The notes below the pieces were generated by a model. It made no database searches. It saw nothing but the letters and a program-made list of their open reading frames with translations, and was not told where the DNA came from. A program made the translations under genes and the position numbers. 64,000 bases of DNA from a bacterium HR21 (GTDB lineage Bacteria; Bacteroidota; Ignavibacteria; Kapaibacteriales; HRBIN21), in assembly GCA_002898295.1 (NCBI GenBank), contig BEHX01000001.1, forward strand, positions 115,790 to 179,789, given 5' to 3'. Positions 18,244 through 60,797 of this stretch are shown one piece after another. How positions within the stretch are numbered: the stretch's first letter is position 1; each line of letters starts with the position of its first letter.

Positions 18244-18251
18244 TAATTTTG
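18244..18251 (+). promoter_or_regulatory. Bacteroidota-type -7 promoter element (TAATTTTG, consensus TAnnTTTG) upstream of ldh
   Basis: Exact match to the TAnnTTTG consensus, 37 nt upstream of the ldh ATG in the divergent intergenic region. Confidence 0.3.
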
Positions 18252-26753: not shown

Positions 26754-27386
26754 ATGAGCGTACGGGAAGTGTTTGAGCCGGACCCGCAGAGAGCCTTGCC
26801 GTGCCAGATTTTCCGGCGTCCGACGCGAGAGGTAGCGCGGAGCCTCCTTGGAGCGATTCTGGTCAAGCGGGAACCCGAAGGGTGGTGCGCTGCCCGGCTG
26901 GTGGAGGTGGAGGCGTATCTTCCCGAGGGGGATCCCGCAAACCACGCCTTCCGCGGGAAGACGCGGCGGAATGCCGCGATGTTCGAGCCTGGAGGGGTGC
27001 TCTACGTCTACGCTATCTATGGGCGCCATCGCTGCGTCAACATCGTCACCGAAGGGGCGGGACAGGGAGCTGCTGTCCTGCTGCGAGCAGCCGAGCCCGT
27101 GCTCGGGCTTGAGCTCTTCCGCCGTCGTCGGGGCGACGTGCCGCCGGAGGAGCTCTGCCGTGGACCGGCGCATCTTGCTCGAGCTTTCGGCTTCGATCTC
27201 TCGGATAATTTTCGCTCGATCTGTACCGCGGAGCTCTTCGTGCAAGCCCCGCCCGAACCGGTGCCCGAGGAGCTCATCGGCTGTGGACCGCGTATTGGGG
27301 TCAGTCGCGGACGCGAGCTCCTGTTGCGCTTCTTCCTGCGCACCTCTGCGTGCCTTTCGGGTCCACGCCGCTGGAGCGGGCTATAG
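26754..27386 (+). CDS. mpg: DNA-3-methyladenine glycosylase (Mpg/AAG family)
   Basis: AAG-family motifs ([23 protein letters not shown]-like AIYG). Confidence 0.75.
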
Positions 27387-27456
27387 CTCCGAGGACTTTT
27401 TCAGATATTCGCGCCGGTTCAGGCGACTGCGTCGGTTGGACAGGAGGAGGAACGCC

Positions 27457-28734
27457 GTGGTGGATCTCTTCGAACGCTGTTATGCCTTCCGGCGGGCAGA
27501 TGAAGTCAAGGCGTTGGGGCTCTATCCGTACTTCCACCCGATTGAGGAGAACGAGGGACCGGTGGTGACCATCGGGGGACGCAAAATCATCATGGCAGGC
27601 TCCAACAACTACCTGGGGCTGACCACGCACCCGAAAGTCAAGGAAGCGGCAATGGCAGCAATCCGGAAGTACGGCACGGGCTGTTCCGGCTCGCGCTACT
27701 TGACCGGGACGCTCGACTTGCACGTTGAGCTGGAAGAACGGCTGGCGAAGTTTCTCGGCTATGAAGCTGTGTTGCTCTTCAGCACGGGCTTCCAGACAGC
27801 GCTGGGCACCATTGCCGGACTGGTGCAGAAAGGCGATTACGTCATCAGTGACCGAGAAAACCATGCCTCGATCGTTGCCGGTGCCCTCATGGCGAAGGGG
27901 ATGGGAGCGGAATTCATCCGCTATCGGCACAACGACATGGACGACCTGGAGCGGGTCCTCTCCAGACTGCCCGAGTCTGCTGCGAAGCTGGTCGTCTCCG
28001 ATGGGGTCTTCTCGGTGACCGGAGAAATTGTGGATCTGCCGCGTCTGCTGGAGATTGCGCATCGGTACAATGCACGGGTACTCATCGATGATGCGCACGC
28101 CATAGGAGTCATCGGGATTGGAGGGCGCGGGACGGCGAGCATGTTCGGGCTCACTGAGCAGACTGACCTGACCATGGGCACGTTCTCGAAGACCTTTGCG
28201 TCGCTGGGTGGTTTTGTGGCAGGTCCGGAGCGGGTGATCAACTACCTCAAGCACCACTCCTCGGCACTCATCTTCAGTGCCAGCCCGACACCGGCGTCGT
28301 GTGCAGCAGCCCTAGCGGCACTGGAAATCCTCGAAGAGCATCCTGAGCTGGTGGATAAGCTCCTCCGGAACGCCAACAAGATGCGGCAGGGCTTCAAGGA
28401 GATGGGCTTCCACACGCTCGACGGGCAGACCGCTATTGTCCCTGTCATTGTCGGCGATGTGCAGACAGCGCTCCTGTTCTGGCGCAAGCTCTTCGATGCG
28501 GGCGTCTATGTCAACACCTTTATCCCGCCTGGCGTTCCGCCGAACATGAGCATGATGCGTACCAGCTACATGGCAACGCACGAGGATGAGCACCTGGATC
28601 GGATTCTGGAGGTCTTCGAGAAGGTCGGGCGTGAGCTCGGTTTGCTGAGCGCGGAGGCCCGGGAGCGCATTGCTGCGGGCATTGCTCAGGATCGGCTCGC
28701 GCGCATTCCGGAATCAGATCGTCAAGTCCCGTAA
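27457..28734 (+). CDS. PLP-dependent alpha-oxoamine synthase family acyltransferase (serine palmitoyltransferase / BioF / KBL-like)
   Basis: AOS family motifs ([11 protein letters not shown]-lysine motif [12 protein letters not shown]). No ATG lies upstream in frame. A GTG at 27457 sits 9 nt downstream of an AGGAGG sequence. Confidence 0.7.
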
Positions 28735-32797: not shown

Positions 32798-32898
32798 ACT
32801 CCGATGTGACAACGCACGGCACAGCCGGCAAGGGTGAGGAAGGGTGGAGAGGGAGCTACCTATTTTTGCAGCGGTGGTCAGGATACCGTGGAGAGTGG

Positions 32899-35471: not shown

Positions 35472-36680
35472 TCAAGGGTGAGACAGGAGCTGCTGTGCTC
35501 GCTCCAATGCTTTCTCAGGGGAGTGGATGCCGTAGAGGGCTTCAACGACGGCGTTCTCGAAGGCAGCCTCCAGTTCGAGCCACTGAGGATGGACAGGGGT
35601 CATCCGCGCCCGGCGTAACTGCTCGGCGAAGTGCCTCCGGTACGGGATACTGAGCAAGAGCGAGTCCTGCACGAAACGCTGGTCGGCAGGGAACCCTGCC
35701 TCTGGTACGGCACGGCAGAACCGCACGGCGGTTTCTCCGGCAGTCAAGAAACGGACGAGGGCAAGTGCCAGCTCTTTCCGCGGGGAAGCAGCACTGATGG
35801 CAAGGTACTCCCCACCGGCGAAGGAGATCCCGGGCTGCAGTGGAGTCTGCCCGGGAAGCAGGGCAAGACTGTACTCCCAGCGCGGCTGCTGCTGCCGCAG
35901 TTTCTCCGCCAGCCATGCTCCCGAGACCCAGAAGCCGAGCTTGCCTTGGAGGAAGAGGTCGTCGAGCTGCCGTTGGGTTTCAATGAGCCCCACACGGGCA
36001 AGCTCTGTATAGAAGCGTACCGCTCTCACAACGGGAGGCGCCGTCAGCTGTGGGCGTCCGGTGCTGTCCAGCAAATCGCCACCGAAGCTCCATACGAGCG
36101 GGAGCACCTTCTTGTAGAGCCGGTGTGGGTCAGCGCCGTTGACTCCGCAACCGTACAGAGACGGCGGGGAATGGAGCTGGGATGCCCGCTGCAGGAGCTC
36201 TTCCCACGTCTGGGGCGGCGTCTGCGGGAGCCCAGCCCGCTGGAGAGCCGTTCGATTGAGGAACAGCACACGGGTATCCACAATCCACGGGACAGCGTAG
36301 AGCTTGCCCTGCCAGAAACACGGTGGGTGAGTGGCAGCCAGGAAGTGCTCCAGCGGAATGCTGTCTCGGGGCAGTTCCCAGAGAACGCCAGCGCTGGAAA
36401 ACTGGGCAACCCAATCGGAGCCGAGCTCCAACACGTCAGGAGGCTTTCCTGCATTGAAAGCAGCCAGCAGCTTGGTTTTCCCTTCGTTCCAGGTCAACTC
36501 CGTGACGTCCACCCGACAGTGGAAGCGCTGCTCAAATTCAGCAATCAGCTCCTGCAGAGCAGCGCGGTGTCGTGGTTCACTCCAGAAATGCCAGAAGCTG
36601 ATGCGGCGCTCCTCGGGCACGTTCCCGGGACGGCATGCACTCAGCAACACAAGGATGCTCAGCACTGCTCTGGCACTCAT
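35472..36680 (-). CDS. ABC transporter substrate-binding lipoprotein (family 1, sugar/oligosaccharide type)
   Basis: Lipobox (LLSAC) and SBP_bac_1-like composition. Its start overlaps the stop of the upstream SLBB gene. Confidence 0.6.
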   Translation of the reverse strand: MSARAVLSILVLLSACRPGNVPEERRISFWHFWSEPRHRAALQELIAEFEQRFHCRVDVTELTWNEGKTKLLAAFNAGKPPDVLELGSDWVAQFSSAGVLWELPRDSIPLEHFLAATHPPCFWQGKLYAVPWIVDTRVLFLNRTALQRAGLPQTPPQTWEELLQRASQLHSPPSLYGCGVNGADPHRLYKKVLPLVWSFGGDLLDSTGRPQLTAPPVVRAVRFYTELARVGLIETQRQLDDLFLQGKLGFWVSGAWLAEKLRQQQPRWEYSLALLPGQTPLQPGISFAGGEYLAISAASPRKELALALVRFLTAGETAVRFCRAVPEAGFPADQRFVQDSLLLSIPYRRHFAEQLRRARMTPVHPQWLELEAAFENAVVEALYGIHSPEKALERAQQLLSHP

Positions 36681-37216
36681 CGCCCTCCGCGGAAGAAGAG
36701 AACCAGCGTGACCGCTGCCTGCAAGATGAGGAGGACATCCCGGACAACCCCGACGACGACCTCCAGCGTACTGAGTGCTCCGCCGGGGACGATGACTGTA
36801 TCACCGGGATACAGCAGTGGATTCTGGCTCGGGTCGCCGGTGCGCTGGTAGAGTTCCAGGTTGTAGACCAGCACTCGCTCGACGATGGTGGTATCCACCC
36901 GCACATCCCGGATGACGCGGACATCGGTCAGCCGGGCGTACTCGGTTGGTCCGCCACCGAAGGAGATGAGCTGGACCAGCGTGGTAGAGCTGGGGACCAA
37001 GTAGCGCCCTGGGACACGGACGTAGCCCCAGAGGTTGACCGGAATGGTCAGTCCAGCCCCGAAGCTGAGGTCGTAGTATGCAGCCCCGCCCAGCCCAGTG
37101 TACGGCATCGAACGGGGTTGGGACTGTTCCTGCCCTGGAGGAGCAAAGAGGTTGCGGGGATGCTGTGCCCAGAGCAGCGGCGCTGCCAGGAGGAGCAGTC
37201 CGAAGCGCAGGCTCAT
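36677..37216 (-). CDS. SLBB/polysaccharide-export (Wza-like) domain protein
   Basis: Signal peptide; SLBB beta-grasp motif (GYVRVPGRYLVP...TLVQLISFGGG...RVIR); PES-like PGDTVIVP motif. Confidence 0.55.
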   Translation of the reverse strand: MSLRFGLLLLAAPLLWAQHPRNLFAPPGQEQSQPRSMPYTGLGGAAYYDLSFGAGLTIPVNLWGYVRVPGRYLVPSSTTLVQLISFGGGPTEYARLTDVRVIRDVRVDTTIVERVLVYNLELYQRTGDPSQNPLLYPGDTVIVPGGALSTLEVVVGVVRDVLLILQAAVTLVLFFRGGR

Positions 37217-37241
37217 GACCCGTTGGGAGTCGAGTAAGACA

Positions 37242-38006
37242 TCATCGCAGCCAGAACGTGCGCCAGACCGAACTTGCTCCGCGTTCGGGGCGTCCAGGTG
37301 TTACGCGGCTGATACGCCAGCGGTAGAGCTTCCCCGGCTGCAGTGGCTCGGCCCGTCCGTCCTGATTGTAGCGAATTTGAGGGCGTGAGTAATCGAGCGG
37401 GACCCCGGCGAAGACCCACACGGGGCGTCCTCCAATGTCAGGGTTGAGCGAGTCTGCCTCGAAGACGCGAAGGACCACGTACCCAACATTGTTGCTCCAG
37501 CGGAAGATGACCGAATCGGGAGCGACAGCCCCGATCGGTGCCAGAGGCACAGGGGGAGGCTCCAGCGTGAAGCGTACGGTGTCTGAGGGAGGACCTTCGC
37601 GCCGCTGCGGCGAGCGGTCCAGCGCATGGACACGGTAGTAGTACGTGCGCCAGGGGGTAACAGCCAGGTCAACGTACGCCGTATCTTCCGCCGTAGTGCC
37701 GTACTCGATCGTGACCAACTCGTGGAAGTTGATGGGACGTCCACTGGAATCGGTCGTGTCGCTGCGGTAGAGTCGATAGCCGCCGACTTTGAGCGGGTCG
37801 AGAGCATGCCACTCCAGCCGAATGCCTCCCACGCCGTTTGCAGCGGCGTCGGGCCATGGGCGAACGCCCGTCTCGAAAGCAGCCGTATCGGCACTGCGGG
37901 TAACCCAGCGCGGAGCCTCCAGCGGAGTCGGGGGTGACTCTGTCGGAGTCCCGCATCCGCTCACTGCCAGGAGAAGGAGGCACCAGGAACAGAGCTGCAT
38001 CATCAT
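37242..38006 (-). CDS. lipoprotein with fibronectin-III-like repeats
   Basis: Lipobox (LLAVSGC). Two repeats ending in Y(R/Y)(W/Y)R-type FN3 strands (YRLYRSD, YYYRVHALD, YRWRISRV). Confidence 0.5.
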   Translation of the reverse strand: MMMQLCSWCLLLLAVSGCGTPTESPPTPLEAPRWVTRSADTAAFETGVRPWPDAAANGVGGIRLEWHALDPLKVGGYRLYRSDTTDSSGRPINFHELVTIEYGTTAEDTAYVDLAVTPWRTYYYRVHALDRSPQRREGPPSDTVRFTLEPPPVPLAPIGAVAPDSVIFRWSNNVGYVVLRVFEADSLNPDIGGRPVWVFAGVPLDYSRPQIRYNQDGRAEPLQPGKLYRWRISRVTPGRPERGASSVWRTFWLR

Positions 38007-39100
38007 CGGAGGCGTTCCAGTATAGGTCCGAGCCGGAGACTGACAGCCAGTCGGTGGACATTGCCCAGCTGTGCGTCGGAGTCAGCTAGGAAGCCATAGT
38101 CGGCGCTGAGGAAGCCGACATCCACACCGGCGCCGAGTGTCAGAACCCCGTGGTATGCCCCGAGCCGGAGGGCAAAACTACGGCGATAGGTTACTTCGAT
38201 GCCGTAGTTGCTGGCACCGCTGTAGCGGCTGTCGCGGTCGTAGGCAATGGTAGCTTCCATGTGCCACATTTCCAGCGGTTGCGTCAGAGCAATCCCCCAC
38301 TGGACCGAGCTTGGGATGCGGTGTGGACGCTGGGTGCTCCACAGAAGCCGTGTTCCCCCGAGGTCGCGCACGAATAGCCCCAGAGCTAGTCGGGGCCAGC
38401 GTTCATCGAAGGCGATGTCCTTGAGGTTGACCCGCAGTGCTGCTCCAAGGTCTAAGCCCAGCCCTGAAGCGGTGTGCTCGGCAATGCGCTGGTGAAGGAG
38501 TTTGAGGTTGACTCCGATGGGGAATTCTACCGGGACGGCAAAGCGCATCCAGCCGAAATCCACCGGGATGACGAACAAGTGCGCTAGGCTCAGCCAGAGA
38601 GCGTCATCGGCATTGGGGATGAATTCACCCTGTCCAGCACGTCGGACGAGCTCTTCCCGCTCTTGCGGCGAGAGCACCCGCGTCAGGTCCGGATACCGGC
38701 GGAGGTCTGGGACGGTGAAGCGTACCCAATTGATGCCCAGCTGTGCCCGGGATACCGGCACGGTAAGCCCGGTGTGGAAGAAATGCGCCAGCGGTGAACC
38801 GAGCGAGCCATACTGCGAACTGTACATGCCTGACACGAGCGGAGTCGGGGGAAGCAGCGCCAAGCCCGCAGGATTCCAGGCAAATCCCCATGCGTCATCG
38901 GCAACGGCGCTGAAGGCTCCACCCATGCCCAGTGCTCGGGCTCCGAGCGGAATCTCCAGAAAAGCCCCCGCATAGGGCTCCTCTTGTGCCCACAGCGTCA
39001 GGCACATGCCGAGAATGCTAACGAACCCGCGCCACACTGCCGCGCCGCTCAATGACAGTCTCACCTGCTCGGACACGGACTCGGTAGAAGTATACCCCAT
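38003..39100 (-). CDS. porV: T9SS outer-membrane protein PorV (LptO) family
   Basis: Directly downstream of porU. N-terminal GARALGMGGAFSAVADD...NPAGLA signature and beta-barrel periodicity. The start is uncertain: Met codons at 39121 and 39100, and Met109 at 39007. Confidence 0.7.
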   Translation of the reverse strand: MGYTSTESVSEQVRLSLSGAAVWRGFVSILGMCLTLWAQEEPYAGAFLEIPLGARALGMGGAFSAVADDAWGFAWNPAGLALLPPTPLVSGMYSSQYGSLGSPLAHFFHTGLTVPVSRAQLGINWVRFTVPDLRRYPDLTRVLSPQEREELVRRAGQGEFIPNADDALWLSLAHLFVIPVDFGWMRFAVPVEFPIGVNLKLLHQRIAEHTASGLGLDLGAALRVNLKDIAFDERWPRLALGLFVRDLGGTRLLWSTQRPHRIPSSVQWGIALTQPLEMWHMEATIAYDRDSRYSGASNYGIEVTYRRSFALRLGAYHGVLTLGAGVDVGFLSADYGFLADSDAQLGNVHRLAVSLRLGPILERLR

Positions 39101-42100
39101 TGGCCACCGGACGCCCCTCATCGTCGGTGCCATCCCACCAGATTTCGTGGTACCCTGGGGCGGTCGGCAGCCCGGTCCCGCCGCGCAAGAAGCCAAAAGC
39201 TTCCGTCGGGGAGGAGGTCGGGAAGACCATACGCCGGATTGAACGCCCGGAAGCGGTGTAAAAGCGGACTTCAATCTCATCCACGTTACTGGCACCCAGC
39301 AGCTCGTAGGCGATAAACATCTCCTCGGCAAACGGGTTGGGAAAGGTGCCCAGGAGACGCAGCTCTAGCGTTGTGGAAACTTCCACCTGGATGCAGGTGC
39401 GTTCGCTCGTGTTCCCGTTGCAGTCGGTGAGTGTCGCACAGATGATGTGGGTCCCACTTTCCAACCGCGGACGGTAGCTGATGCTGGCAGCCGTTGGGGT
39501 CTGCGCGGTATCCAGTACGGCGTACTGACTTGCTGGGACGGGCTGCCCGTTGAGTGTCAGCTGGATCGAGCCGGTGTCGGTGGCAATTCCGTTTTCATCA
39601 ACGCCGACGATGCCAATGCGGGGGTATGCCGAGAGGACCGTCCGCGTCGGCAGAGAGCGCCCTTCTGCCGTAAGTCGGACCTGCGGTGGGCGCCGGTCTG
39701 TTGTTACTCCTACGGCGAAGACCCCGGGCAGAGTCACTTCAGCGGTGAGCACTCCCGGGCTGAGCTCGGAGCTAGGTAAACGCTGCCACAGGTCTAGCCG
39801 GGAGTGCTTCCGGTAGAGTGCCGGGGTCCCACGCTGGAGGGAACTATCCTGGCGGTCATACCAGAGCTGCAAGGTTGCGCGAAGTGGCTGCGCAGTGGTG
39901 ATGGCAAGAGCGCGTGAGCTATCGGCAAGGCGGAGGAGGAAGACATCGGGCTGGACCGTGCGGGCAGAATCCAGCACCTGCAAGCAGAGGAGCACAGGGG
40001 TTGAGGGAGCCGCTGCCGCGGGGACTTCCACCACGGCAATCCCAGGGACGCCCACGGCGGTAGCCTGTACCCCGTCTGGAGTTGTCCCCAGCCCCGGCAT
40101 GACGGCAAAGCATCCAAGCAGCAGGCTGTCTTCGGCAGCGTTGTTTGCCTGGATGCGGTCCCCACCGGTGGAGAGAGTGTCGCTGAGTACCTCAAGCCGG
40201 AGCCAACGAGGACGGAGCGCCGGGGGAGGACGGAGGAGCCAGTCCGTGAAGCCGTTTCCTGGGATATCCAGCCGCTGCGCTGCCAGCAGTTGGAGCCCGC
40301 CGCCGGGTTGCCGTTGCCAGAGCCGAGCAAGAACTGCCCCCGCGGGCGTCTCCGACCAGTTGTAAAGGCGCGCCTGAAGCTGTGCCCCTTGCCCGGTGAC
40401 AACCATCCGCAGCCAGGGTAGAGCTGTCCGGAGACTGTCCCCGGCGAGGGGAAGCAGTACGGCTGGGTCGGCAATCCCGGGGACACGGAAAGTGGCAAGC
40501 CACGAGCTGACGCTCTGCCCAGTGGAGAGTGTCACTGTGAAAAGCACGCGGAATTCCGCACCGGCAACCACGGATGCTGCGGGAACCGGAGGCTGGGTCT
40601 GGTAGAGCTCCGGAGCAACAAGCTGGCACGGCAGAGTCCCTAACGAAGAGAGCGTTCCATCGGGCAGGAGTACGCTCACCGTTGCCGTCACTGTCTGGAC
40701 CGGAGTACGGCTGCGGACGCTGATGCGGAATGCCAGAGGCTGTCCCGGTACGGGGGGCGAAGGATTCGACTGGATTTCTCCAAGCAGGACAGCCCCGGTG
40801 CTCAGTGTCACACCACCGCTGAGGGCGCGGGTGCCATCGGCGGAGACGACGTAGAGACGCACGGAGAGCCGCGAGCCGGTGTAGGTGGCAGGGATGCGGA
40901 CCGACCAGCGGAGCCTCGTGCCTGAAAGCGACACCACCTGCTCACTTCCCGGCAGATCGTTCCCGCGCTCGTCAGTGAGCAGGAGGCGGGCAGTGCCGGA
41001 GCCGAACGGGAGTACTGCCTGCACGGTGAGAGAGTCGCCGGGATATGCCGTTGCCGGCTCAGCCTCCAGCCTGAGGGTATCGGGAGGCAGCCGGAGAAGC
41101 ATTGCTGGATCGCCCAGGAGGGTGGACTGCAGCAGCATGGAGAGAACAATCTCGTTTTGCAGCCCGTACGCTCGGGCAGCGTAGAGGAGCTTGCCACCGC
41201 GGAAGACGTCGCCCAAACGCTGTTCCGTACCCGTTGGACGGGTCAGCACCTCCAGGAGGGCGGTGGAAAGCAGGAAGCTATTCTCCAGCCAGCCGTAACC
41301 GGAATTGCCCCAGGCTGCCACGGCGCCGCGCCGAGGAGCAATGACAAGGCTGGTGAGCAACCCGCGGCGGTAGACCTGCTGCTCGAAAGCCCCGGTAAAG
41401 CATGTCAGGCTGGAGACAATCGGGTAGCGCCCTCGATTTTGGAGGAGCTCCACATCCTCATCGCGGAGGAGTCCGGCGTCTTCCCAAATGCCGCCTCCGC
41501 CGTGCCCGAGGAAGTTGACCACAGCGGCTCCCTCGGCGAAGAGTTGGAGCAGCTCGCTGGTGTGCCCGGAATACGGTGTGCCAGGGGCAACGTAGAGACG
41601 CCGCTGGGAAATCCCTGGTGGCAGGCGCTCGGCAAGGAGTTCGGTCTGCTGCTGAAAGCCGTTGAGCCCTGCCAGGAGCAGGACTCGGGGGTGAAAGTAC
41701 TCGGTGGCGTAGCGCCCTTCGTGTTCTTCCAGCTTGGAGATCACGGCGTCAGCCTCTGCGAGGGTTTCAGCCGGAATGCGCCCGATGGCAATTTCCGCAA
41801 AGGGATCGTCAGTCAGCGCTCCTGTTGGGGTCTGATACGTTCCTTCAACGCAGCCGTAGGGGTAGTCGGTCGGTGTCATGCCCCAGCGCCGGGTCTGCCA
41901 GAGCTGTGGCGGAAGGGGACGAGCAGATCCGAGCAGCAAGACGTAGCGCGGGGGAACGCTCCAGGTATGCCATGCGTACCGGAGGAAACGGCGGAGAGCT
42001 TCCCGGGAGGCAATGCCGTAGTTGAATTCGTCGTAGATGTCTTCGATGTCTACCGCCATTGCACGCAAGCCCTGGCGCTGGCGGAGCTGCAGCAGGCGCT

Positions 42101-43958
42101 GTACCGGATGGGTCGGTGAGACAGCTTCGGGTGTTTGCCGATCCCAGAGCCCCTTGTGGGTGATGAGCAGATAGTCGGCAGCGTTTGCAGGATTGACAAG
42201 ATCGGACGGGAAGTCTCGCACCAGGCGCCGAGGGGTCCGGACACTGTCGGCTGCAATGGCGTAGAAGAGCTCCTCGGGCGAGGCAACGTAACTCTGGAAG
42301 CGGACTGTGTAGCGGACTCCGCCGAACGGGAGCGTCACTCGTTCGAGGCTGAAATTGACAATTCGGGAGACTCCGTAGCGGAAGAGCAAGATGTTCGGGG
42401 TCCGGAAGCCTTCAAGGGCAAATGTATACAGTCCCGGTGGGGAGCCTTCGGGGGTGCGAAAGAGCAGCTCGTCATCGGTTGCGACGTAGAGCCGGGGATA
42501 GCGAATGCGGACCCAGTTGAGGAAGAAGCTCGGGGCACGGTCGGCCGCCTCTGGGCAGTCGAAGATGTTCGCAACGGTCAGGGTGCTGCTGTCAGCCTCG
42601 GCAAGGAGGGAAGCGGGGATAGGCGCAATCTGGTCCCGAGGGGAACGCACCAGGAACGGACGCGCATCGGACCAGGAAGCGCGCAGGATCCGCCGTCGGT
42701 TGAGGTAAATCTCGGCAGTGTACGGCGGAATTGGGCACGGCAGAGGGCGTGCCAAGGCGCCACAGAGCATGACTTCAACCTCGACCGGGTCAGGTGCCAG
42801 GAGCGCCGGTGCAGGAAGCCGAATAGGTACCGTGACACTCGTGTTGGCAGGTACGCGTGCCCAGAAGAGCTGGTCCCCACGGAAGCTCGGCAGCAGGAGA
42901 TCGCGGTCCAGCTCTTCGACCGCACCGAAGCGCTCTTCGAGGCGGTTTTCCTCCACGATGACCGTGCTGAGGAAGGCCCTGCCGCGCAGGTCTACCATCC
43001 GTCGAGGGTCGCTGATACGGATGTCCCCGGATTCTTCCACCATCCGCTGCCCTTTGCCCGGAGCCCAGGTCAGGACGTAGACGTTTTCGTCGGTCTCCGG
43101 GTCGCGGTACATGTCGCCGTAGGGGTTCTGGAAGCTAACTCGGTTGGCTTCTGCGAAGAACGCCAGGTAGTCCGGGTCAGGGGGATAGTCGTCCAATCGT
43201 CCGTTGTTGTTGCGGTCGTAGACGTAGAGGGGGATTTCACGCCCACGGTTCCACAAGCGGAAGGATTCTACCGGGATCGTTGCAAGCGGTATACCGAGCT
43301 CCTGCAGCTGGCGAGCGGTGACCCTGTAGAGCCCATCCCGATCCACGATGAGCTTGTACTGATAGCCGTCAGGTGCTGTTGGGATGCGGTGAGGTTCTCC
43401 CTGCAGGAGCTCTCTCCCTGCCGTGCTGCGGGCGGATGCTGGCACGGAGGATGGCTCAATGACGGGAATACCTGCCGAGAAGGGAACAGGGCTGCGGAAA
43501 CGGACGCGAAACTCCCGGGCGATGCGCACGCGGTGTCTCTCGGTATCCAGGGTGTAGGGGAAAAGTTGGAGCGCTGCGATGGAGTGCTCGCCCGTGCTAC
43601 CCAGCGGGAGGAGGCGTGCCAGCGGAGGATCCTCCGGACGGCACTCGGTACAGCGGCGCTGGGCAAGCGGAGCTTCAAGCGGCAGCTCTTGCCAGCGCAG
43701 TACTTCAGTGGAAAGCTCCGTCTGCGGCGGGAGGCGCAACAGGAGCGCAAAGCCATAGAGGGCTCGATCAGGCAGAGCAAATGCCCAGCGGGAAAGCGGT
43801 GGCAGTTGCCGCATGCCGTCTGCTGTGGGAACGAAGCTCGGGGCATCGAGCTGGACGGTCAGTACCAGCTCGCCGGTACTGGAGCGCTCCCAGGAGGTGC
43901 GGAGTTCTTCGCCGACAGCACTTCCGACAGCGAGGAGGAAGAAAACGCCCCAGAGCAT
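39018..43958 (-). CDS. porU: T9SS C-terminal signal peptidase/sortase PorU (peptidase C25 family), unusually long at 1646 aa
   Basis: Signal peptide MLWGVFFLLAVGSAVG. Gingipain-like catalytic His (VNFLGHGGGG) and Cys (SSLTCFTGAF) motifs. C-terminal Por_Secre_tail-like domain. Conserved porU-porV adjacency. Confidence 0.8.
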   Translation of the reverse strand: MLWGVFFLLAVGSAVGEELRTSWERSSTGELVLTVQLDAPSFVPTADGMRQLPPLSRWAFALPDRALYGFALLLRLPPQTELSTEVLRWQELPLEAPLAQRRCTECRPEDPPLARLLPLGSTGEHSIAALQLFPYTLDTERHRVRIAREFRVRFRSPVPFSAGIPVIEPSSVPASARSTAGRELLQGEPHRIPTAPDGYQYKLIVDRDGLYRVTARQLQELGIPLATIPVESFRLWNRGREIPLYVYDRNNNGRLDDYPPDPDYLAFFAEANRVSFQNPYGDMYRDPETDENVYVLTWAPGKGQRMVEESGDIRISDPRRMVDLRGRAFLSTVIVEENRLEERFGAVEELDRDLLLPSFRGDQLFWARVPANTSVTVPIRLPAPALLAPDPVEVEVMLCGALARPLPCPIPPYTAEIYLNRRRILRASWSDARPFLVRSPRDQIAPIPASLLAEADSSTLTVANIFDCPEAADRAPSFFLNWVRIRYPRLYVATDDELLFRTPEGSPPGLYTFALEGFRTPNILLFRYGVSRIVNFSLERVTLPFGGVRYTVRFQSYVASPEELFYAIAADSVRTPRRLVRDFPSDLVNPANAADYLLITHKGLWDRQTPEAVSPTHPVQRLLQLRQRQGLRAMAVDIEDIYDEFNYGIASREALRRFLRYAWHTWSVPPRYVLLLGSARPLPPQLWQTRRWGMTPTDYPYGCVEGTYQTPTGALTDDPFAEIAIGRIPAETLAEADAVISKLEEHEGRYATEYFHPRVLLLAGLNGFQQQTELLAERLPPGISQRRLYVAPGTPYSGHTSELLQLFAEGAAVVNFLGHGGGGIWEDAGLLRDEDVELLQNRGRYPIVSSLTCFTGAFEQQVYRRGLLTSLVIAPRRGAVAAWGNSGYGWLENSFLLSTALLEVLTRPTGTEQRLGDVFRGGKLLYAARAYGLQNEIVLSMLLQSTLLGDPAMLLRLPPDTLRLEAEPATAYPGDSLTVQAVLPFGSGTARLLLTDERGNDLPGSEQVVSLSGTRLRWSVRIPATYTGSRLSVRLYVVSADGTRALSGGVTLSTGAVLLGEIQSNPSPPVPGQPLAFRISVRSRTPVQTVTATVSVLLPDGTLSSLGTLPCQLVAPELYQTQPPVPAASVVAGAEFRVLFTVTLSTGQSVSSWLATFRVPGIADPAVLLPLAGDSLRTALPWLRMVVTGQGAQLQARLYNWSETPAGAVLARLWQRQPGGGLQLLAAQRLDIPGNGFTDWLLRPPPALRPRWLRLEVLSDTLSTGGDRIQANNAAEDSLLLGCFAVMPGLGTTPDGVQATAVGVPGIAVVEVPAAAAPSTPVLLCLQVLDSARTVQPDVFLLRLADSSRALAITTAQPLRATLQLWYDRQDSSLQRGTPALYRKHSRLDLWQRLPSSELSPGVLTAEVTLPGVFAVGVTTDRRPPQVRLTAEGRSLPTRTVLSAYPRIGIVGVDENGIATDTGSIQLTLNGQPVPASQYAVLDTAQTPTAASISYRPRLESGTHIICATLTDCNGNTSERTCIQVEVSTTLELRLLGTFPNPFAEEMFIAYELLGASNVDEIEVRFYTASGRSIRRMVFPTSSPTEAFGFLRGGTGLPTAPGYHEIWWDGTDDEGRPVANGVYFYRVRVRAGETVIERRGSVARVR

Positions 43959-44007: not shown

Positions 44008-44667
44008 TTACGGCGAGCGGTTACCACGGGCGGCGCTCTCGTGCCGGAATTCTGCGTAGAGCCAGAGCAGTTCTGCCAGGATCATTGCAGTGGCTCCCCA
44101 CAGGGGGACAGGGGAGGAAAGCCGCCACAGCGGGACATACAGCAGGCGCCCGTCCCGGGACCAGGTTTCCATCTGCGGCGGGTGTTGAGCCAGCTCGTCG
44201 AGCGATAGAAGCCGTAGCTCCTCGACCTCTTCAGGGTTGAGTCGGAACTCCTCCGGCGGAGACAGCGCAGCGATCACCGGGATGACAGCCGCATGCGATG
44301 CCGGCACATACAGCGGAGTTGCTCGTCCGAGAAGCTCTACCTGATCGGGAACAATGCCGATTTCTTCTGTCGCCTCCCGGACAGCAGCCTCTTCGGGTGC
44401 CTCCCCAGCATGGAGCATTCCGCCGGGGAAGCTCCACTCACCCCGATGATGCAGGAGCCGGGAGCTCCGAAGGGTGAGCAGACATGTCGGAGAGGGTACG
44501 TTCCGCAAGAAAGCAACCAGAACAGCTGCGGGGCGGCTTCCAGGAGGAGGGGTAAGCGGACGCTGGCGACCCGGTGCGTGTGGCATGAGCCGCTGGTGAG
44601 CTGCATGCCCCGGTAGAGGCTCCTGCAGCCGACGACGGAGAAAGCTAACCCACGCGTGCTCGTCCAT
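44008..44667 (-). CDS. NUDIX hydrolase, CoA pyrophosphatase-like (NudL)
   Basis: Nudix box (GEWSFPGG...EAAVREATEEIG). The N-terminal FLRRRLQ segment fits the NudL N-terminus. An alternative upstream start is at 44757. Confidence 0.7.
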   Translation of the reverse strand: MDEHAWVSFLRRRLQEPLPGHAAHQRLMPHAPGRQRPLTPPPGSRPAAVLVAFLRNVPSPTCLLTLRSSRLLHHRGEWSFPGGMLHAGEAPEEAAVREATEEIGIVPDQVELLGRATPLYVPASHAAVIPVIAALSPPEEFRLNPEEVEELRLLSLDELAQHPPQMETWSRDGRLLYVPLWRLSSPVPLWGATAMILAELLWLYAEFRHESAARGNRSP

Positions 44668-44771
44668 GATATTGACGACAGCATAGCCAAAGACGAAGAC
44701 GGGAGCCGCTTCTGGCTGCTCACGGAGGTACGCCGTAGTTTTGCTCTTCGGTAGCATGGGGAGTCGCCGAC

Positions 44772-46382
44772 ATGTACCTCCTTCTCTGGGTGGTGGCATC
44801 GTGCTCTGCCTTGGCAGCTTGGTGCGGTGCCACGGTCAGTCCCGACACGCTCGACTTCGGCTCGTTGCCGCTCGGACGTGTACAGAGCCGGAGCCTCACC
44901 CTCACCAATGGTGGGAGCGGGGAGCTGGTGCTCCTGGGAGCGGACATCCGCCAGTGGGCGTGGGGTGGATTCGCCGTCGCGACTACGGTACCGCAGACGC
45001 TCCAGCCCGGAGAGAGCCTCTCGCTTGAGGTGAGGGCGCTCTTCGTGCATAACCTCCCCTGCCAGGGGATCCTGCTGCTACGGCTCCGGTGTGAAGAGGC
45101 AGAGTGGACATACCCGTGCCTGCTCCAGGCGCATCCGCAGGACCCTGATTCTGTGTACGCTCTCACCGACGGGCTCTGGGGCGAGGCACTCCGGCAGCGG
45201 CTACAGGAATTGGTACAGCAGCAGCGGGTTCTCCCCTACGATAGTGCGCGCCGTGCCATTTTCTTCGACGTGGATAATCGCGGCGGGAAGGTCGAGTGCG
45301 TCTACACCGGGCAAACCATTGCGGTCCCGCCGATGCCCTCACCGACAGTTTTCAACGTCGAGCATACCTGGCCGCGGAGCCGCGGCAGCGATACTCTCCC
45401 GCCGTTGAGCGATCTGCACCATCTTTTCCCAACCCGGGCAGAAGCGAACGAGCAACGCCGGGATTTGCGCTTCGGGCTTGTCCGTACCGTTCTCTGGCAG
45501 CTGGGCGGCTCTCGCTACGGGCTGGATTCGACCGGTGCGGAAGTCTTCGAGCCCCGCGATCGTCACAAAGGTGATGCTGCTCGTGCGCTTTTCTACGTAG
45601 CGCTCCGCTACGGGAACATGACCGGCTGGCTGACGGCGCCGTACGAGGCACTCCTCCGTCGCTGGCATGAGCAGGATACGGTGGATGAGTGGGAACGGGA
45701 GCGCACACACCGGATTGCCCGTCTTCAAGGGCGGGCGAATCCCTTTGTGGAGCGTCCGCAGCTGCTTGAGCGGCTCTCCCGCGTCGGTGGCACTGCAGCG
45801 TTTCCGGACATTGCGCAGCCTGTGCTCTCCGATACCGTGCTGGAGTACCGGGGAAGAGAGCCCTCGGCAGAGGTGCGGTTAGGGATTCTCAACCTCGGCT
45901 GGGGAGCAGCACAGCTGCGGGCACTCGACATACTCGAACTCCCTGCAGGGGTTGAAATCACGCCGCGTCTGCTCGATAGCCTCATTGCCCCTGGCAGGAC
46001 TGGTTGGGTTGTGGTACGGCTGCAGGGGATAGCGGGCTCGTCAGGGAATGTGCGGATGCGCCTTCGGTTTGCTGCTGGGGTCCGACCACTGGAGGTCGTG
46101 CTGCGGCTTACCCCGAGCGGCATTGCTTCCCCGTGGGCTATCAGGCTTGTGGAGGGAGATGAGCTTGTGGTGCATTGGGCAGGACCGGTGCCTGCGGACA
46201 TCCCACGGCTGACGGTATTCACCGTAGCAGGGCAGGCGCTGGCGTGCCCTGCCAGGTTCCGAGCGCTGGCGGACGGCTCTGTGGAAGTGCGCCTCCCGCG
46301 TGACAGGCTTCCCCGTGGACTGCTCCTGCTGCGTGTCAATGTTGGACAGCAGGTCTGGTGGACATGGAGGCTGAACCCGTAA
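44772..46382 (+). CDS. secreted endonuclease I family nuclease with T9SS C-terminal sorting domain
   Basis: Signal peptide. Endonuclease-I catalytic motif (NVEHTWPRSRG, the EHxWP motif). C-terminal ~90 aa with a Por_Secre_tail pattern (LTVFTVAGQ...GLLLLRVNVGQQVWWTWRL). Confidence 0.65.
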   Translation: MYLLLWVVASCSALAAWCGATVSPDTLDFGSLPLGRVQSRSLTLTNGGSGELVLLGADIRQWAWGGFAVATTVPQTLQPGESLSLEVRALFVHNLPCQGILLLRLRCEEAEWTYPCLLQAHPQDPDSVYALTDGLWGEALRQRLQELVQQQRVLPYDSARRAIFFDVDNRGGKVECVYTGQTIAVPPMPSPTVFNVEHTWPRSRGSDTLPPLSDLHHLFPTRAEANEQRRDLRFGLVRTVLWQLGGSRYGLDSTGAEVFEPRDRHKGDAARALFYVALRYGNMTGWLTAPYEALLRRWHEQDTVDEWERERTHRIARLQGRANPFVERPQLLERLSRVGGTAAFPDIAQPVLSDTVLEYRGREPSAEVRLGILNLGWGAAQLRALDILELPAGVEITPRLLDSLIAPGRTGWVVVRLQGIAGSSGNVRMRLRFAAGVRPLEVVLRLTPSGIASPWAIRLVEGDELVVHWAGPVPADIPRLTVFTVAGQALACPARFRALADGSVEVRLPRDRLPRGLLLLRVNVGQQVWWTWRLNP

Positions 46383-47128
46383 AGCCGGGAACGCTCTACG
46401 TGGTCGGTACCCCTATCGGGGACTTGGACGACATCACCCTCCGGGCACTTCGCGTGCTGAAGGGGTGCTCGGTGGTCTTCTGCGAGGAATTCAAGGTCGG
46501 TGCCCGGCTCCTGCGCGCCCATCGGATTGACAAGCCGCTGGAGACGCTCAACGAGCACAATGAGCCGGAGGCAACCGAACGGGTTCTTGCCTATTTGCGT
46601 CAGGGCAAGGATGTCGCGCTCATTTCCGATGCCGGCATGCCGCTCATTGCTGATCCGGGCTTGCTCCTTGTCCGGCGTGTGCTGCAGGAAGGGTTGCCAT
46701 TGGTCGTTGTCCCGGGACCGTCGAGCATCGTGACGGCGCTGGTTCGGAGCGGCTTTTCTACCGACCAATTCCTCTTCGCCGGGATGCTCAGTCGTAGACC
46801 CGAAGAGCGTCGCCGTCAGCTCCAGGCATTGGCAGAGGAGACCCGAACGGTGGTGTTGCTGGAGACACCGTACCGACTGCGGCAGCTCCTCAGCGACGCT
46901 GCTGCCATTATGCCCGAGCGCCGGGCATACGTGGGGTGCAATCTGACGCTGCCGTACGAAACGCACCACTACGGGACGTTCGCTCAGCTGTGGGAACGTT
47001 TCCGCCAGAGCCGCTTCCGAGGGGAATTCGTCCTCTGCTTCGAAGGACGGTCAGTACTCGAGCCGCACCGTGCTGTCCGGAAGGCTCGGACACCCTTCCC
47101 GAGACGGCAACGGAGGCGGCGGGTGTAA
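46358..47128 (+). CDS. rsmI: 16S rRNA (cytidine1402-2'-O)-methyltransferase
   Basis: Tetrapyrrole-methylase-fold motifs (LYVVGTPIGDLDDIT, ETPYRL). Confidence 0.85.
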   Translation: MDMEAEPVKPGTLYVVGTPIGDLDDITLRALRVLKGCSVVFCEEFKVGARLLRAHRIDKPLETLNEHNEPEATERVLAYLRQGKDVALISDAGMPLIADPGLLLVRRVLQEGLPLVVVPGPSSIVTALVRSGFSTDQFLFAGMLSRRPEERRRQLQALAEETRTVVLLETPYRLRQLLSDAAAIMPERRAYVGCNLTLPYETHHYGTFAQLWERFRQSRFRGEFVLCFEGRSVLEPHRAVRKARTPFPRRQRRRRV

Positions 47129-47159
47129 TTTTGTACGTGGTGCGGCACGGGAATCCACA

Positions 47160-53920: not shown

Positions 53921-54081
53921 ACGGTACCGCGGTTCATGTCCGGCGGCTGCTGACGGATGAGAGCAAAATTTGGTGACTGCTCCACGGCTGCTGGCAACGC
54001 GCTGCTTGAGACTCCTAGGGCTGAGGAGCTTCGTAAGTTTGTATACATGTTGAGGCTCGTTCAACCCTTCGAGAGCGACGC

Positions 54082-56334: not shown

Positions 56335-57966
56335 ATGATTGCCCACCGGGAAACGCTCCAACGGCTTTTGGGAGAACTCAGCCCGAGGGTGTGTGCGGCT
56401 TCCCTCGTGGCTCTGCGGCGTCGTGGTCAGTATGAACTGTTCCTGTGGTTCGCATCCCCAGCAGCCCCGACGGTCATTGTGGAGGCGCACTTCCGTGCGG
56501 GGTTGAGCACAGTCTTTTGCCGCCCCTCCACGTGGAAAGAGCCCGAGCGAACTGTCCCATGGGCAGAGGAGCTCTGGGGCAAGCGCCTTGTCCACCTGGA
56601 GCTTCACCCGACAGAGCGGCAGCTCCGCTGGGTGCTGGAGACAGGACAGGAGCTGCTCTTTTTCCTCTACGGTACGGCTCAGAGCGGCGTGTTGCTCCGT
56701 GAAAGGGATGGGCAGATCCGGGCATCGCTCGGGGCACCGAGAGCCGTACTGGAAAAGCTCGCCGACGCTCCCCCACGCCGACTCCCTGGCTGGGAGGAAT
56801 ATCCTGCCGAGACGCCGCTTGTCCGTGCGCTGGCGCAGGATCGGCATCAGCTCGGGAGCTTCTACGCGCACGAGCTCTGCCAGCGCTGCGGTATTGCGCC
56901 GGATACGCCGCTGGGACAGCTCTCCGAGCACGAGCGAGAGCGCCTCCGGCAGATGCTGTCGGAGTTCTGCCGGGAGTTGACCGAAAGTTCCTCCGCCTTT
57001 CTCTTCCGGCGTCCGGAGGGACCTCCCCTGGTGTCACTGCTCCCCTTGCGAGGGTACTCAGAGCCGATTGCGGTCTTCTGCAGCATCTCCGATGCCGTTG
57101 CAGAGCGGGTCCGACAAACTCTCCTGTGGGAAGAATTCCGCCGGGAGCGTCTCCAGCTCCAGCAGCGCTTAGAACGCCATGCGCGGCAGCTGGCGCGTTG
57201 GCGCCAGGAAGCGGAGCAGTGCCTGCACCATGCCCCGGTGAGTGAGCGCGAGCGCCTCTGGGGGAACCTCCTGCTCATGCAACCCGGGCTCCACGAGCGG
57301 GGCAGGAGCGAAATCGTCCTTCCCGATTGGGAAGGCAATCCCCAGCGGATTCCGCTCGACCCGGCGAAGAGCTTGCGCGAGAATGCAGAAGCCTATTTCC
57401 AGCGAGCACGTCGTCGAGACGAAGCCGGCAGAAGGGCACGCCACAATCTGCCGCTTCTGCAGGAGCGGGAACACTTCGTCCACGAATTGCTTGCCCAGCT
57501 CCAGCAGGTAACCACACGGCGGCAGCTGCGGGAAATTGCCCAACGGCTCCAGGAGCTCTTCCCTCCGCGGGAGATGACGACCCGGACAGGAGAACGTCTC
57601 CGGGTCTTCCACCTGGCAGCTGGCTTCGTGCTCTATCTCGGCACAGATGCTCGCAGTAACGAGGCGCTGACCTTCCGCTTTGCCCGCCCCCACGATGTCT
57701 TCCTGCACGTCCGTGGTACCTCCGGAGCACATGGCATCCTGCGGGGACCGCGGAAAGGAGAACTTCCCCCGATGCCAATTCTGGAGCAGGCAGCGGCAGT
57801 GGTTGCCTACTACTCTCGGGCGCGCTCTGCCTCCCTGGTGCCAGTGCTCTACACCTGGCGGAAGTATGTGCGCAAGCTCAAAGGAACTCTGGGAGCAGTG
57901 CGGTTGGAACGGGAACAGCTCGTATGGGTCCGACCCCTGCCACCGACAGCCTCGGAGAGCCCGTAA
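56335..57966 (+). CDS. RqcH/NFACT-family protein (FbpA-like; ribosome quality-control homolog)
   Basis: NFACT-R/DUF814 motif (LHVRGTSGAHGIL). NFACT-N-like N-terminus and a central coiled coil. The ATG lies 3 nt after the tRNA 3' end. Confidence 0.6.
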   Translation: MIAHRETLQRLLGELSPRVCAASLVALRRRGQYELFLWFASPAAPTVIVEAHFRAGLSTVFCRPSTWKEPERTVPWAEELWGKRLVHLELHPTERQLRWVLETGQELLFFLYGTAQSGVLLRERDGQIRASLGAPRAVLEKLADAPPRRLPGWEEYPAETPLVRALAQDRHQLGSFYAHELCQRCGIAPDTPLGQLSEHERERLRQMLSEFCRELTESSSAFLFRRPEGPPLVSLLPLRGYSEPIAVFCSISDAVAERVRQTLLWEEFRRERLQLQQRLERHARQLARWRQEAEQCLHHAPVSERERLWGNLLLMQPGLHERGRSEIVLPDWEGNPQRIPLDPAKSLRENAEAYFQRARRRDEAGRRARHNLPLLQEREHFVHELLAQLQQVTTRRQLREIAQRLQELFPPREMTTRTGERLRVFHLAAGFVLYLGTDARSNEALTFRFARPHDVFLHVRGTSGAHGILRGPRKGELPPMPILEQAAAVVAYYSRARSASLVPVLYTWRKYVRKLKGTLGAVRLEREQLVWVRPLPPTASESP

Positions 57967-57981
57967 TTTTGCCTCAGCACC

Positions 57982-60706: not shown

Positions 60707-60797
60707 GCAGGTACCCCTGGAGATGGCGTCCTTTCGGCACAGTCGGATGCAGGACTCCGCTTCGGCTGGACAAGACGCTGTAATCAAGCACGACAGC

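Follow-up and report, generated by a model that had tools for sequence, protein, structure and literature searches.

The 64,000-nucleotide window analysed here (contig BEHX01000001.1, G+C content 62%) comes from the hot-spring Kapabacterium Ca. Kapabacteria 'bacterium HR21'. On its minus strand lies a gene pair resembling porU and porV, which in the secretion system of type IX (T9SS) encode a C25-family sortase and an outer-membrane barrel, followed closely by genes for a lipoprotein with fibronectin type III (FN3) motifs, a Wza-like protein with an SLBB domain and a family-1 solute-binding protein (SBP). To our knowledge, none of these three additional proteins is a described T9SS component, and the acceptor of T9SS cargo outside Porphyromonas gingivalis, as well as its route to the sortase, is poorly understood. 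The locus therefore raises the question of whether the three genes stand beside the pair by chance or belong with it, and what an SLBB protein might contribute at the cargo attachment step. The reading that we prefer, and in which our confidence is evenly balanced, is that the row belongs to a lineage-specific, extended T9SS-type cell-surface attachment module that has been inherited as one unit among Kapabacteria, Kryptonia and Calditrichia as well as further uncultured relatives.

Conservation of the gene row among relatives

The five minus-strand genes are tightly packed, as originally predicted, and their limits (Table 1) agree between the list of open reading frames (ORFs) and three public records of identical sequence (L085-L087). 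The public gene calls were used because GC3-based gene calling does not discriminate between the frames at this G+C content. The start of the PorV-like gene overlaps the stop of the C25 gene by 20 nt, 4-nt start/stop overlaps (ATGA) join the PorV-like gene to the FN3 gene and the SLBB gene to the SBP gene, and a gap of 25 nt separates the FN3 and SLBB genes. These tight junctions suggest co-transcription of the five genes. A divergent endonuclease I gene marks the upstream boundary of the row, and a convergent His_Phos_1 gene together with a CCG/4Fe-4S gene lies at its downstream end.

Conservation was examined from two sides. An alignment of 27 homologues of the SLBB protein (A1) yielded 80 loci on one-genome-per-species contigs, onto which the five window proteins were mapped by tblastn and iterated hidden Markov models. 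A PorV-like neighbour is present at 48 of these loci. Eighteen show the complete order C25-PorV-FN3-SLBB-SBP seen in the window (Kapabacteria and some metagenome-assembled genomes (MAGs) labelled Ignavibacteriota or Bacteroidota), 16 the order C25-PorV-FN3-SLBB (Kryptonia and others), eight the order C25-PorV-SLBB with the FN3 gene missing, and six have a small lipoprotein instead of the C25 protein, followed by PorV and SLBB. At a further 30 loci the SLBB homologue is found beside a Wzc-type tyrosine kinase in ordinary exopolysaccharide (EPS) loci, and two show other arrangements.

The second probe, an alignment of 12 PorV-like proteins (A2) that is unbiased with respect to SLBB, gave 80 metagenome loci at 27–45% identity. 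The C25 gene adjoins the PorV gene at 61 of the 68 loci with upstream room. Among the 52 loci with at least 1.9 kb of downstream sequence, an SLBB gene occurs within 1.8 kb of PorV in 40, an FN3 gene comes directly after PorV in 40, and an SBP gene is present in one. FN3 and SLBB genes follow the PorU/PorV-like genes even where the PorV is only 32–45% identical. Of the 12 loci that lack SLBB, most belong to the most divergent PorV matches, and they include plain C25-PorV pairs (L150, L152, L156-L158). These distant pairs lend indirect support to the notion that the canonical porU-porV unit does not contain the additional genes, the Bacteroidia loci themselves lying outside the scan.

When all 122 PorV-bearing loci were grouped at a PorV identity of at least 55%, 19 lineage groups resulted, 18 of which have the C25 gene. 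Absence of the downstream genes from relatives had been named beforehand as the finding that would indicate chance; the SLBB and FN3 genes are retained in 13 and 12 groups, respectively, contrary to that expectation, and the SBP gene is found in four, which agrees with it in part. The commonest other neighbours are SecA (five groups) and a 386-aa protein (four groups). Among the hosts are Kapabacteria, Kryptonia and Calditrichia, one of the carriers bearing the annotation of a Calditrichia bacterium, and most carriers are uncultured. The flanking genes vary by lineage and are of housekeeping type: SecA, Era, P-II, ParAB, aminotransferase V, cytidine deaminase and ProRS. Judged from this synteny, the conserved core is C25-PorV-(FN3)-SLBB, and its juxtaposition of SLBB and FN3 genes with PorU/PorV-like genes is not due to chance. 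That unrelated genes simply came to lie side by side is very improbable: the restricted distribution of the SBP is the single point in favour of it, nothing comparable holding for SLBB or FN3, and it is opposed by an order and adjacency kept in 12–13 lineage groups with unrelated flanks.

Where SecA is a neighbour, its gene is placed immediately upstream of the C25 gene (37 loci, among them L004, about 7.9 kb upstream of PorV). This adjacency possibly reflects ancestral synteny.

The encoded proteins

The first protein of the row carries a signal peptide, a Peptidase_C25 domain (Pfam, 2.7e-68, residues 596–954) and its own C-terminal domain (CTD)-like region, with a weak Pfam match to FlgD_ig (1e-4, residues 1600–1629) at the extreme C-terminus. 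In the alignment with P. gingivalis PorU (Protein Data Bank (PDB) 6za2), the NFLGHGG motif pairs with NYAGHGG, placing the GHGG histidines together, SLTC pairs with TATC at the position of PorU Cys690, and the C-terminus aligns with the PorU CTD. The module enzyme thus resembles PorU in its catalytic His and Cys and in its CTD-like tail, but it is approximately 500 residues longer. The dyad is kept among homologues from the related loci (His819 in 77 and Cys853 in 79 of 81). On these alignments the His/Cys dyad of the window enzyme is intact, and the enzyme is a PorU-like C25 peptidase and putative T9SS-type sortase. It scores 202 bits on the NCBIfam T9SS_sortase model (NF033707, cut-off 420) and 174 bits (5.2e-51) on the PorU2 model (NF052324, cut-off 450).

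The profile matches of the second protein (344 aa) indicate an outer-membrane barrel of the PorV/PorQ family. The best of them is to the NCBIfam PorV/PorQ family model (PorV_fam, NF033709; 4.7e-21, 75.7 bits, cut-off 90), followed by PorV2 (NF052325; 6.6e-18, 64.7 bits, cut-off 325), PorQ (39.9 bits) and canonical PorV (NF033710; 22.6 bits, cut-off 250). There is also a weak match to Pfam UPF0164, and the comparison with the PorV structure 6h3i (E 0.017) involves the N-terminal motif alone. The PorV-like proteins of the module elsewhere score 85–110 bits on the PorV/PorQ family model, and relatives at L150, L158 and L164 (90.1–109.5 bits) reach its cut-off. The names PorU and PorV given to the pair in the original prediction do not extend to the canonical models, since both proteins score under those cut-offs. 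The pair is best described, from its sequences, as divergent PorU/PorV relatives from outside Bacteroidia and not as members of the curated equivalogs.

These scores bear on a further reading, according to which the genes encode a PorU/PorV-related sorting system independent of the T9SS, a paralogous pair with its own small set of substrates that stands apart from the main attachment complex. The position of both proteins under the equivalog cut-offs, with the PorV-like protein particularly low on canonical PorV, would agree with it, as would the fact that NCBIfam already recognises a separate PorU2/PorV2 pair, a PorU/PorV-related gene pair whose two models are matched by the window proteins, and the distinctness of the PorU-type CTD from the other C-termini in the window. 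The matches to PorU2 and PorV2, however, are far under their cut-offs, the module C25 proteins of other lineages favour the canonical sortase model (312–386 bits) over PorU2 (215–249 bits), and no second pair was seen in any of the 20-kb loci, whole genomes not having been searched. We regard a T9SS-independent system as improbable and retain the pair as part of a T9SS-type attachment module.

A variant of the gene row is seen at the six loci, labelled 'Chlorobiota/Kapaibacterium', that have a lipoprotein of 145–195 aa in place of the C25 gene (examples in Table 1). This lipoprotein is homologous only to residues 1513–1646 of the window enzyme, which correspond to the CTD-like domain, and it is followed by the PorV-like and SLBB genes. 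The CTD is therefore a separable domain, and CTD, barrel and SLBB travel together even without the protease, in a core CTD-PorV-SLBB. On this synteny the barrel-SLBB pair would be the most persistent element of the module. The co-occurrence also fits the arrangement in P. gingivalis, where an outer-membrane β-barrel of the attachment complex holds PorU at the surface (PMC8545088).

Two further observations concern barrels near the module. At four of the six loci just mentioned, two CarboxypepD_reg outer-membrane barrels come after the PorV-like and SLBB genes. At L108, L147 and L151, a second, more distant PorV/PorQ-family gene is located 1–3 kb from the module, and its product could be a PorQ-like partner.

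The third protein (254 aa) has no match in Pfam or NCBIfam. It shows a lipobox (AVSGC) whose Cys18 is invariant in the family, and FN3-type motifs are visible in the alignment. The AlphaFold model, based on a shallower alignment (A4), has a pLDDT of 76.3 and a pTM of 0.71, and its best Foldseek matches are tandem FNIII pairs. A Calditrichia homologue (L170) passes the Pfam fn3 threshold (30.2 against 25), P0042 also matches fn3, and the close homologues are annotated Candidatus Kapabacteria. Taken together, sequence and predicted fold are those of a lipoprotein with two FN3-type domains, in line with the original assignment. The stretch after the lipid Cys was inspected by eye for a lipoprotein export signal, and acidic residues occupy positions +2 to +5 in about half of the family. 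A search of 1.84 billion representatives with the family profile confirmed the FN3 nature; as a census of the family it was discarded, being swamped by giant multi-FN3 proteins.

The fourth protein and 'hypothetical protein HRbin21_00128 [bacterium HR21]' have identical sequences (100%). It consists of an SPI signal peptide, a Gly-rich linker, one SLBB β-grasp domain (Pfam SLBB 1.1e-07, SLBB_2 2.8e-06) and a predicted hydrophobic C-terminal helix of 31 residues, in which an R-D pair is conserved and the tail is basic. Its weak NCBIfam matches are to EpsY and to a PEP-CTERM export protein. In the AlphaFold model the β-grasp (residues 49–143) has pLDDT values above 90 and the helix spans residues 147–177. 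The top Foldseek matches are the small Wza 7xff, WzaB 9n9a, a class-3 outer-membrane polysaccharide export (OPX) protein, and E. coli Wza 2j58 (E 4e-7 to 7e-6), the Wza and WzaB matches as a whole extending to 1e-5. The family profile weakly matches the SLBB of Wza (E 8e-4) through the common motif gDxxqNPxLyPGDxixVP, and the strand YxxxxGxxLxIxVW aligns to Wza only insignificantly. Relatives with 35–45% identity sit beside Wzc, Wzy-like and glycosyltransferase genes. One Wzc-linked copy (L064) is accompanied by a Wzy-like polytopic membrane protein, glycosyltransferases and a heparinase-type lyase, which is an ordinary Wzx/Wzy EPS locus. In a single Kryptoniota MAG, a module copy (L035) coexists with SLBB paralogues located elsewhere (L047, L049), and the module copy is thus a dedicated paralogue. 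The 'SLBB/Wza-like' description made from the sequence is supported by the fold, the weak profile matches to Wza and the Wzc-linked paralogues: by predicted fold and paralogy, the protein is a collapsed Wza relative.

OPX proteins by definition carry a Poly_export domain, to which class 1 adds Wza_C and class 3 does not (PMC9603273). The window protein has in common with Wza and the OPX family the β-grasp motif, the best fold matches, a predicted C-terminal helix of Wza_C-like length and the Wzc-linked paralogues. It differs from them in the absence of Poly_export and of a Wza_C match, in having one SLBB domain and in not being a lipoprotein. Its C-terminal segment is more hydrophobic (19-residue Kyte-Doolittle maximum of 2.0–2.4) than an amphipathic pore helix would be, and its gene adjoins the sortase-PorV pair, not one for a polysaccharide co-polymerase (PCP).

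A separate feature was noticed at four loci of the Wzc-linked type (L059, L064, L077 and L082). About 1.3 kb upstream of Wzc they encode a protein of about 2000 aa with Big_1/FN3 domains and a FlgD_ig/Por_Secre_tail C-terminus, and without C25, which places a cargo gene of T9SS type next to an EPS locus.

The likeness to class-3 OPX proteins also admits a composite OPX/β-barrel polysaccharide outlet, in which the PorV-family barrel would be the conduit for the small OPX-like SLBB protein (mini-OPX) and the C25 protein a surface enzyme anchored on the barrel, by analogy with the class-3 OPX proteins and Wzp porins of Myxococcus. Composite translocons of this kind are established (PMC9603273, PMC9601211, PMC12819527). 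In the WzaX/S/B-WzpX/S/B systems of M. xanthus a small periplasmic OPX-type protein is likewise genomically paired with an outer-membrane barrel (PMC9601211, PMC12819527), and the window protein matches WzaB itself; moreover, PorV and SLBB stay together at loci without the C25 domain. The module barrel, however, is of the PorV/PorQ family and not 18-stranded and PgaA-like as in M. xanthus, and the known partner barrels are 16–18-stranded PgaA/BcsC/GfcD types and not of PorV/FadL type (PMC9603273). The SLBB paralogues of EPS loci lack a PorV-like neighbour, no PCP, flippase, polymerase or other polysaccharide assembly gene is present in the window cluster or at any PorV-linked locus, and the C25 gene, with its dyad conserved, is kept in nearly all lineage groups. 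An outlet is accordingly quite unlikely, and the attachment module remains the reading that we prefer.

The fifth protein is readily recognised as a family-1 SBP lipoprotein, as had been proposed (Pfam SBP_bac_1 6.2e-31, 109 bits against a cut-off of 26; SBP_bac_8 5e-28; lipobox LLSAC). It has 487 relatives in the PDB, the best of which are oligosaccharide binders (5ci5, 5ysb Lin1841, MalE-type). It agrees with the Cluster D-I SBPs (MalE, Lin1841, UgpB) in being a full-length, lipid-anchored member of the SBP_bac_1 family. It differs from them in its fixed place at the end of a sortase operon and in its missing transporter partners, no ABC permease or ATPase gene being found beside it in the window locus or the related loci. 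The genes past the SBP are the convergent His_Phos_1 gene here and Era and DUF1015 in L003 and L004. In 18 genome loci the SBP is kept at the same position with 40–77% identity, and such a retention, to 40% identity and without a permease, is hard to explain by uptake alone.

The occupant of the fifth position depends on the lineage: Kapabacteria-type loci have the SBP, Calditrichia-type loci encode a protein of about 386 aa, and Kryptonia have nothing there. Its distribution marks the SBP as an addition of the Kapabacteria-type loci that lies outside the general module. The 386-aa protein, encoded at L170, L168 and about 25 metagenome loci, has a signal peptide, a β-rich body and, at the C-terminus, a coiled coil that is highly charged. 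Its family (A5) shows no Pfam match, no sequence match in the PDB and no relation to PorV by hhalign.

The properties of the SLBB protein and the SBP are those on which a more economical reading turns. The SLBB and FN3 proteins would be structural or assembly accessories of the PorU-PorV pair without any glycan role, for instance a tether of the barrel to the inner membrane or to peptidoglycan, or a periplasmic dock or plug, and the SBP an unrelated sugar-uptake gene that came to rest behind the other genes in Kapabacteria. The SLBB domain is a generic β-grasp fold for binding of ligands or proteins that occurs also in ComEA and in NuoF/RnfC-type proteins, the C-terminal segment of the window protein resembles a stop-transfer anchor with a basic cytoplasmic tail, polysaccharide synthesis genes are missing from the module, and just four of the 19 lineage groups have the SBP. 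On the other hand, the nearest relatives of the SLBB protein are OPX genes in a working context beside Wzc, its best structural matches are all Wza/OPX proteins, and the SBP keeps its exact position with no permease at hand. A purely accessory role seems to us unlikely, though it carries appreciable weight, and we continue with the attachment module in its glycan-linked form.

A possible glycan hand-off at the attachment step

In P. gingivalis, PorU, PorV, PorZ and PorQ constitute the attachment complex. PorZ feeds anionic lipopolysaccharide (A-LPS) to PorU, cargo of the T9SS is anchored by transfer to A-LPS, and T9SS mutants accumulate periplasmic A-LPS (PMC8545088). The module shares with this complex and with the porU-porV genes of Bacteroidia the adjacent genes for a C25 enzyme and a PorV-family barrel; in contrast to the P. 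gingivalis complex, no PorZ or PorQ genes are linked to it and three extra genes follow. The retention of the FN3 and SLBB genes beside the pair in very distant relatives suggests that protein anchoring may be coupled to a glycan, and the hand-off of a glycan at cargo attachment, put forward in the original prediction, fits the gene content and the synteny.

In this scenario the PorV-like barrel would hold the PorU-like enzyme at the surface via its CTD, as in P. gingivalis, and the enzyme would cleave the CTDs of cargo proteins and transfer the cargo to a glycan acceptor. The mini-OPX may form an SLBB ring in the periplasm, anchored in the inner membrane or carrying an outer-membrane helix, that would bring the glycan to the barrel or hold it there, with the FN3 lipoprotein as a possible scaffold. 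In Kapabacteria the orphan sugar-binding lipoprotein would add a periplasmic glycan-binding step, which would stand in for PorZ/PorQ and A-LPS of P. gingivalis. A more far-reaching version, which we offer tentatively and consider unlikely as it stands, gives the T9SS attachment step of Kapabacteria, Kryptonia, Calditrichia and related uncultured lineages a Wza-type glycan conduit of its own and makes the operon a protein-to-polysaccharide conjugation machine at the outer membrane, in which a mini-OPX ring under the barrel would feed an exported polysaccharide to a PorU-like transpeptidase, the Kapabacterial SBP would capture the polysaccharide first, and the whole would replace PorZ/PorQ and A-LPS.

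Several results weigh against a T9SS-type attachment module with a glycan function. No T9SS core gene (SprA, PorK/L/M/N) lies in the window, a genome-wide search not having been made, and T9SS cargo is signalled in the window by no more than one borderline match to Por_Secre_tail, the type A sorting domain (22.9 against 23 bits), in an 875-aa SBBP-repeat protein. A search of the window with a PorU-CTD profile matches the PorU-like protein alone, and both proteins of the pair miss the curated equivalog cut-offs. With regard to the glycan, no Wzc, flippase or glycosyltransferase gene is found within the module, and the SLBB protein has no match to Pfam Poly_export (E up to 0.01) or to Wza_C. Its C-terminal segment could serve as an inner-membrane anchor as easily as a Wza-type pore helix, to judge from its hydrophobicity and the model. 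A crude neighbour-joining tree of the SLBB sequences does not separate PorV-linked from Wzc-linked copies, and hence no single origin is claimed for the module copies. To these points are added the eight loci from which the FN3 gene is missing and the lack of the SBP in most lineages.

The view of the row as one transcript also meets with some opposition. Calditrichia-type loci have a gap of 280–295 nt before the SLBB gene, and the PorV-like gene contains a match to the Bacteroidota -7 motif TAnnTTTG (TAGTTTTG), 167 nt ahead of the start of the FN3 gene, which could be an internal promoter. It is the single match on the right strand within the cluster and is within chance (10 matches in the window against 6.0 expected). 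It lacks a TTTG -33 partner, and the composite motif TTTG-N17-23-TAnnTTTG has no match in the whole window. A scan for sigma-70 promoters and terminators between 34.5 and 45.5 kb gave counts at or below the shuffle expectation.

Our literature search returned no paper linking PorU or PorV to an SLBB protein and no description of the module for Ignavibacteria or Kapabacteria; the combination of T9SS and Kapabacteria gave only unrelated CAZyme work. A Wza-type gene that keeps its place next to the genes for sortase and barrel at class- to phylum-level distances is a concrete candidate for the glycan-supply step, with defined partners in the FN3 lipoprotein, the SBP and the 386-aa protein of Calditrichia-type loci. 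The PorV-family barrel would also join the kinds of barrel found beside OPX proteins. By gene order and homology, the T9SS attachment module appears to gain two conserved accessory families, one of them derived from Wza, and these two new families of a PorU/PorV-type module would be defined even if the glycan idea were wrong.

Coordinates, neighbouring genes and other observations

Table 1. Positions of the module genes, neighbouring genes and other features in the window and in related loci
Feature	Sequence	Position	Strand	Remarks
C25 / PorU-like gene	window	39018-43958	minus	1646 aa; ORF list and public gene calls
PorV-like gene	window	38003-39037	minus	344 aa, GTG start; ORF list and public gene calls
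FN3 lipoprotein gene	window	37242-38006	minus	254 aa; ORF list and public gene calls
SLBB gene	window	36677-37216	minus	179 aa; ORF list and public gene calls
SBP gene	window	35472-36680	minus	402 aa; ORF list and public gene calls
NUDIX hydrolase gene	window	44008-44799 (ORF)	minus	Pfam NUDIX 5.9e-21; co-directional neighbour, outside the conserved module
TAGTTTTG, TAnnTTTG match	window	38173..38180	minus	candidate internal promoter
TAnnTTTG match	window	44736-44743	+	
TAnnTTTG match	window	32861-32868	+	
TAnnTTTG match	window	47126-47133	+	
TAnnTTTG match	window	54034-54041	+	
TAnnTTTG match	window	57964-57971	+	
TAnnTTTG match	window	18244-18251	+	
Endonuclease I gene	window	44772-46382	+	
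SBBP-repeat protein gene	window	58079-60706	+	875 aa
GT4 glycosyltransferase gene	window	60723-62024	+	
Gene adjacent to GT4	window	62012-63688	+	558 aa
Serine palmitoyltransferase match	window	26848-28734	+	
CTD-only lipoprotein gene	L001	8349-8825		
CTD-only lipoprotein gene	L010	8270-8728		
CTD-only lipoprotein gene	L011	8101-8688		
CTD-only lipoprotein gene	L012	6350-6787		
CTD-only lipoprotein gene	L014	2339-2881		
Second PorV/PorQ-family gene	L108	13489-14553		
Second PorV/PorQ-family gene	L147	7362-8426		
Second PorV/PorQ-family gene	L151	13308-14342	minus	
386-aa protein gene	L170	11555-12715		
386-aa protein gene	L168	7987-9138		
386-aa protein gene	L115	8819-9979		metagenome locus
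386-aa protein gene	L131	9562-10704		metagenome locus
SecA gene	L004	1-2746		
2000-aa protein gene upstream of Wzc	L064	2-6172		

Upstream of the C25 gene, at a distance of 50 nt, a NUDIX hydrolase gene reads in the same direction. It was considered as a member of the module and rejected, as it is found upstream of the module only in the close relatives L005, L006 and L051; other lineages have SecA or other genes at this place. The public gene call gives a protein of 136 aa starting at 44418, inside the Nudix box (GGMLHAGE...), the ORF runs further upstream to 263 aa and the relatives measure 222–302 aa, so that the deposited start is probably wrong. The motif LLTLRSSRLLHHRGEWSFPGG resembles what we take to be the CoA-pyrophosphatase type.

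Two genes outside the row encode possible T9SS cargo, as judged from their sequences: the 875-aa SBBP-repeat protein mentioned above and endonuclease I, which has a choice-of-anchor D/HYDIN-type Ig domain and whose C-terminal end looks CTD-like by eye. Approximately 17 kb from the operon, a GT4 glycosyltransferase gene and the adjacent gene for a 558-aa protein without a family match are the sole glycan-synthesis genes noticed in the window. Elsewhere in the window, a gene product gives a strong match, with 479 bits, to the model for serine palmitoyltransferase of the Bacteroidota type (cut-off 640), which hints at sphingolipid synthesis in this Kapabacterium. Just downstream follow an adh_short/KR gene and a gene for a 332-aa protein of no assigned family. 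Finally, plus-strand matches to TAnnTTTG are located immediately upstream of several genes, encoding endonuclease I, the CCG/Fe-S protein, MetRS and a PpiD-like protein.

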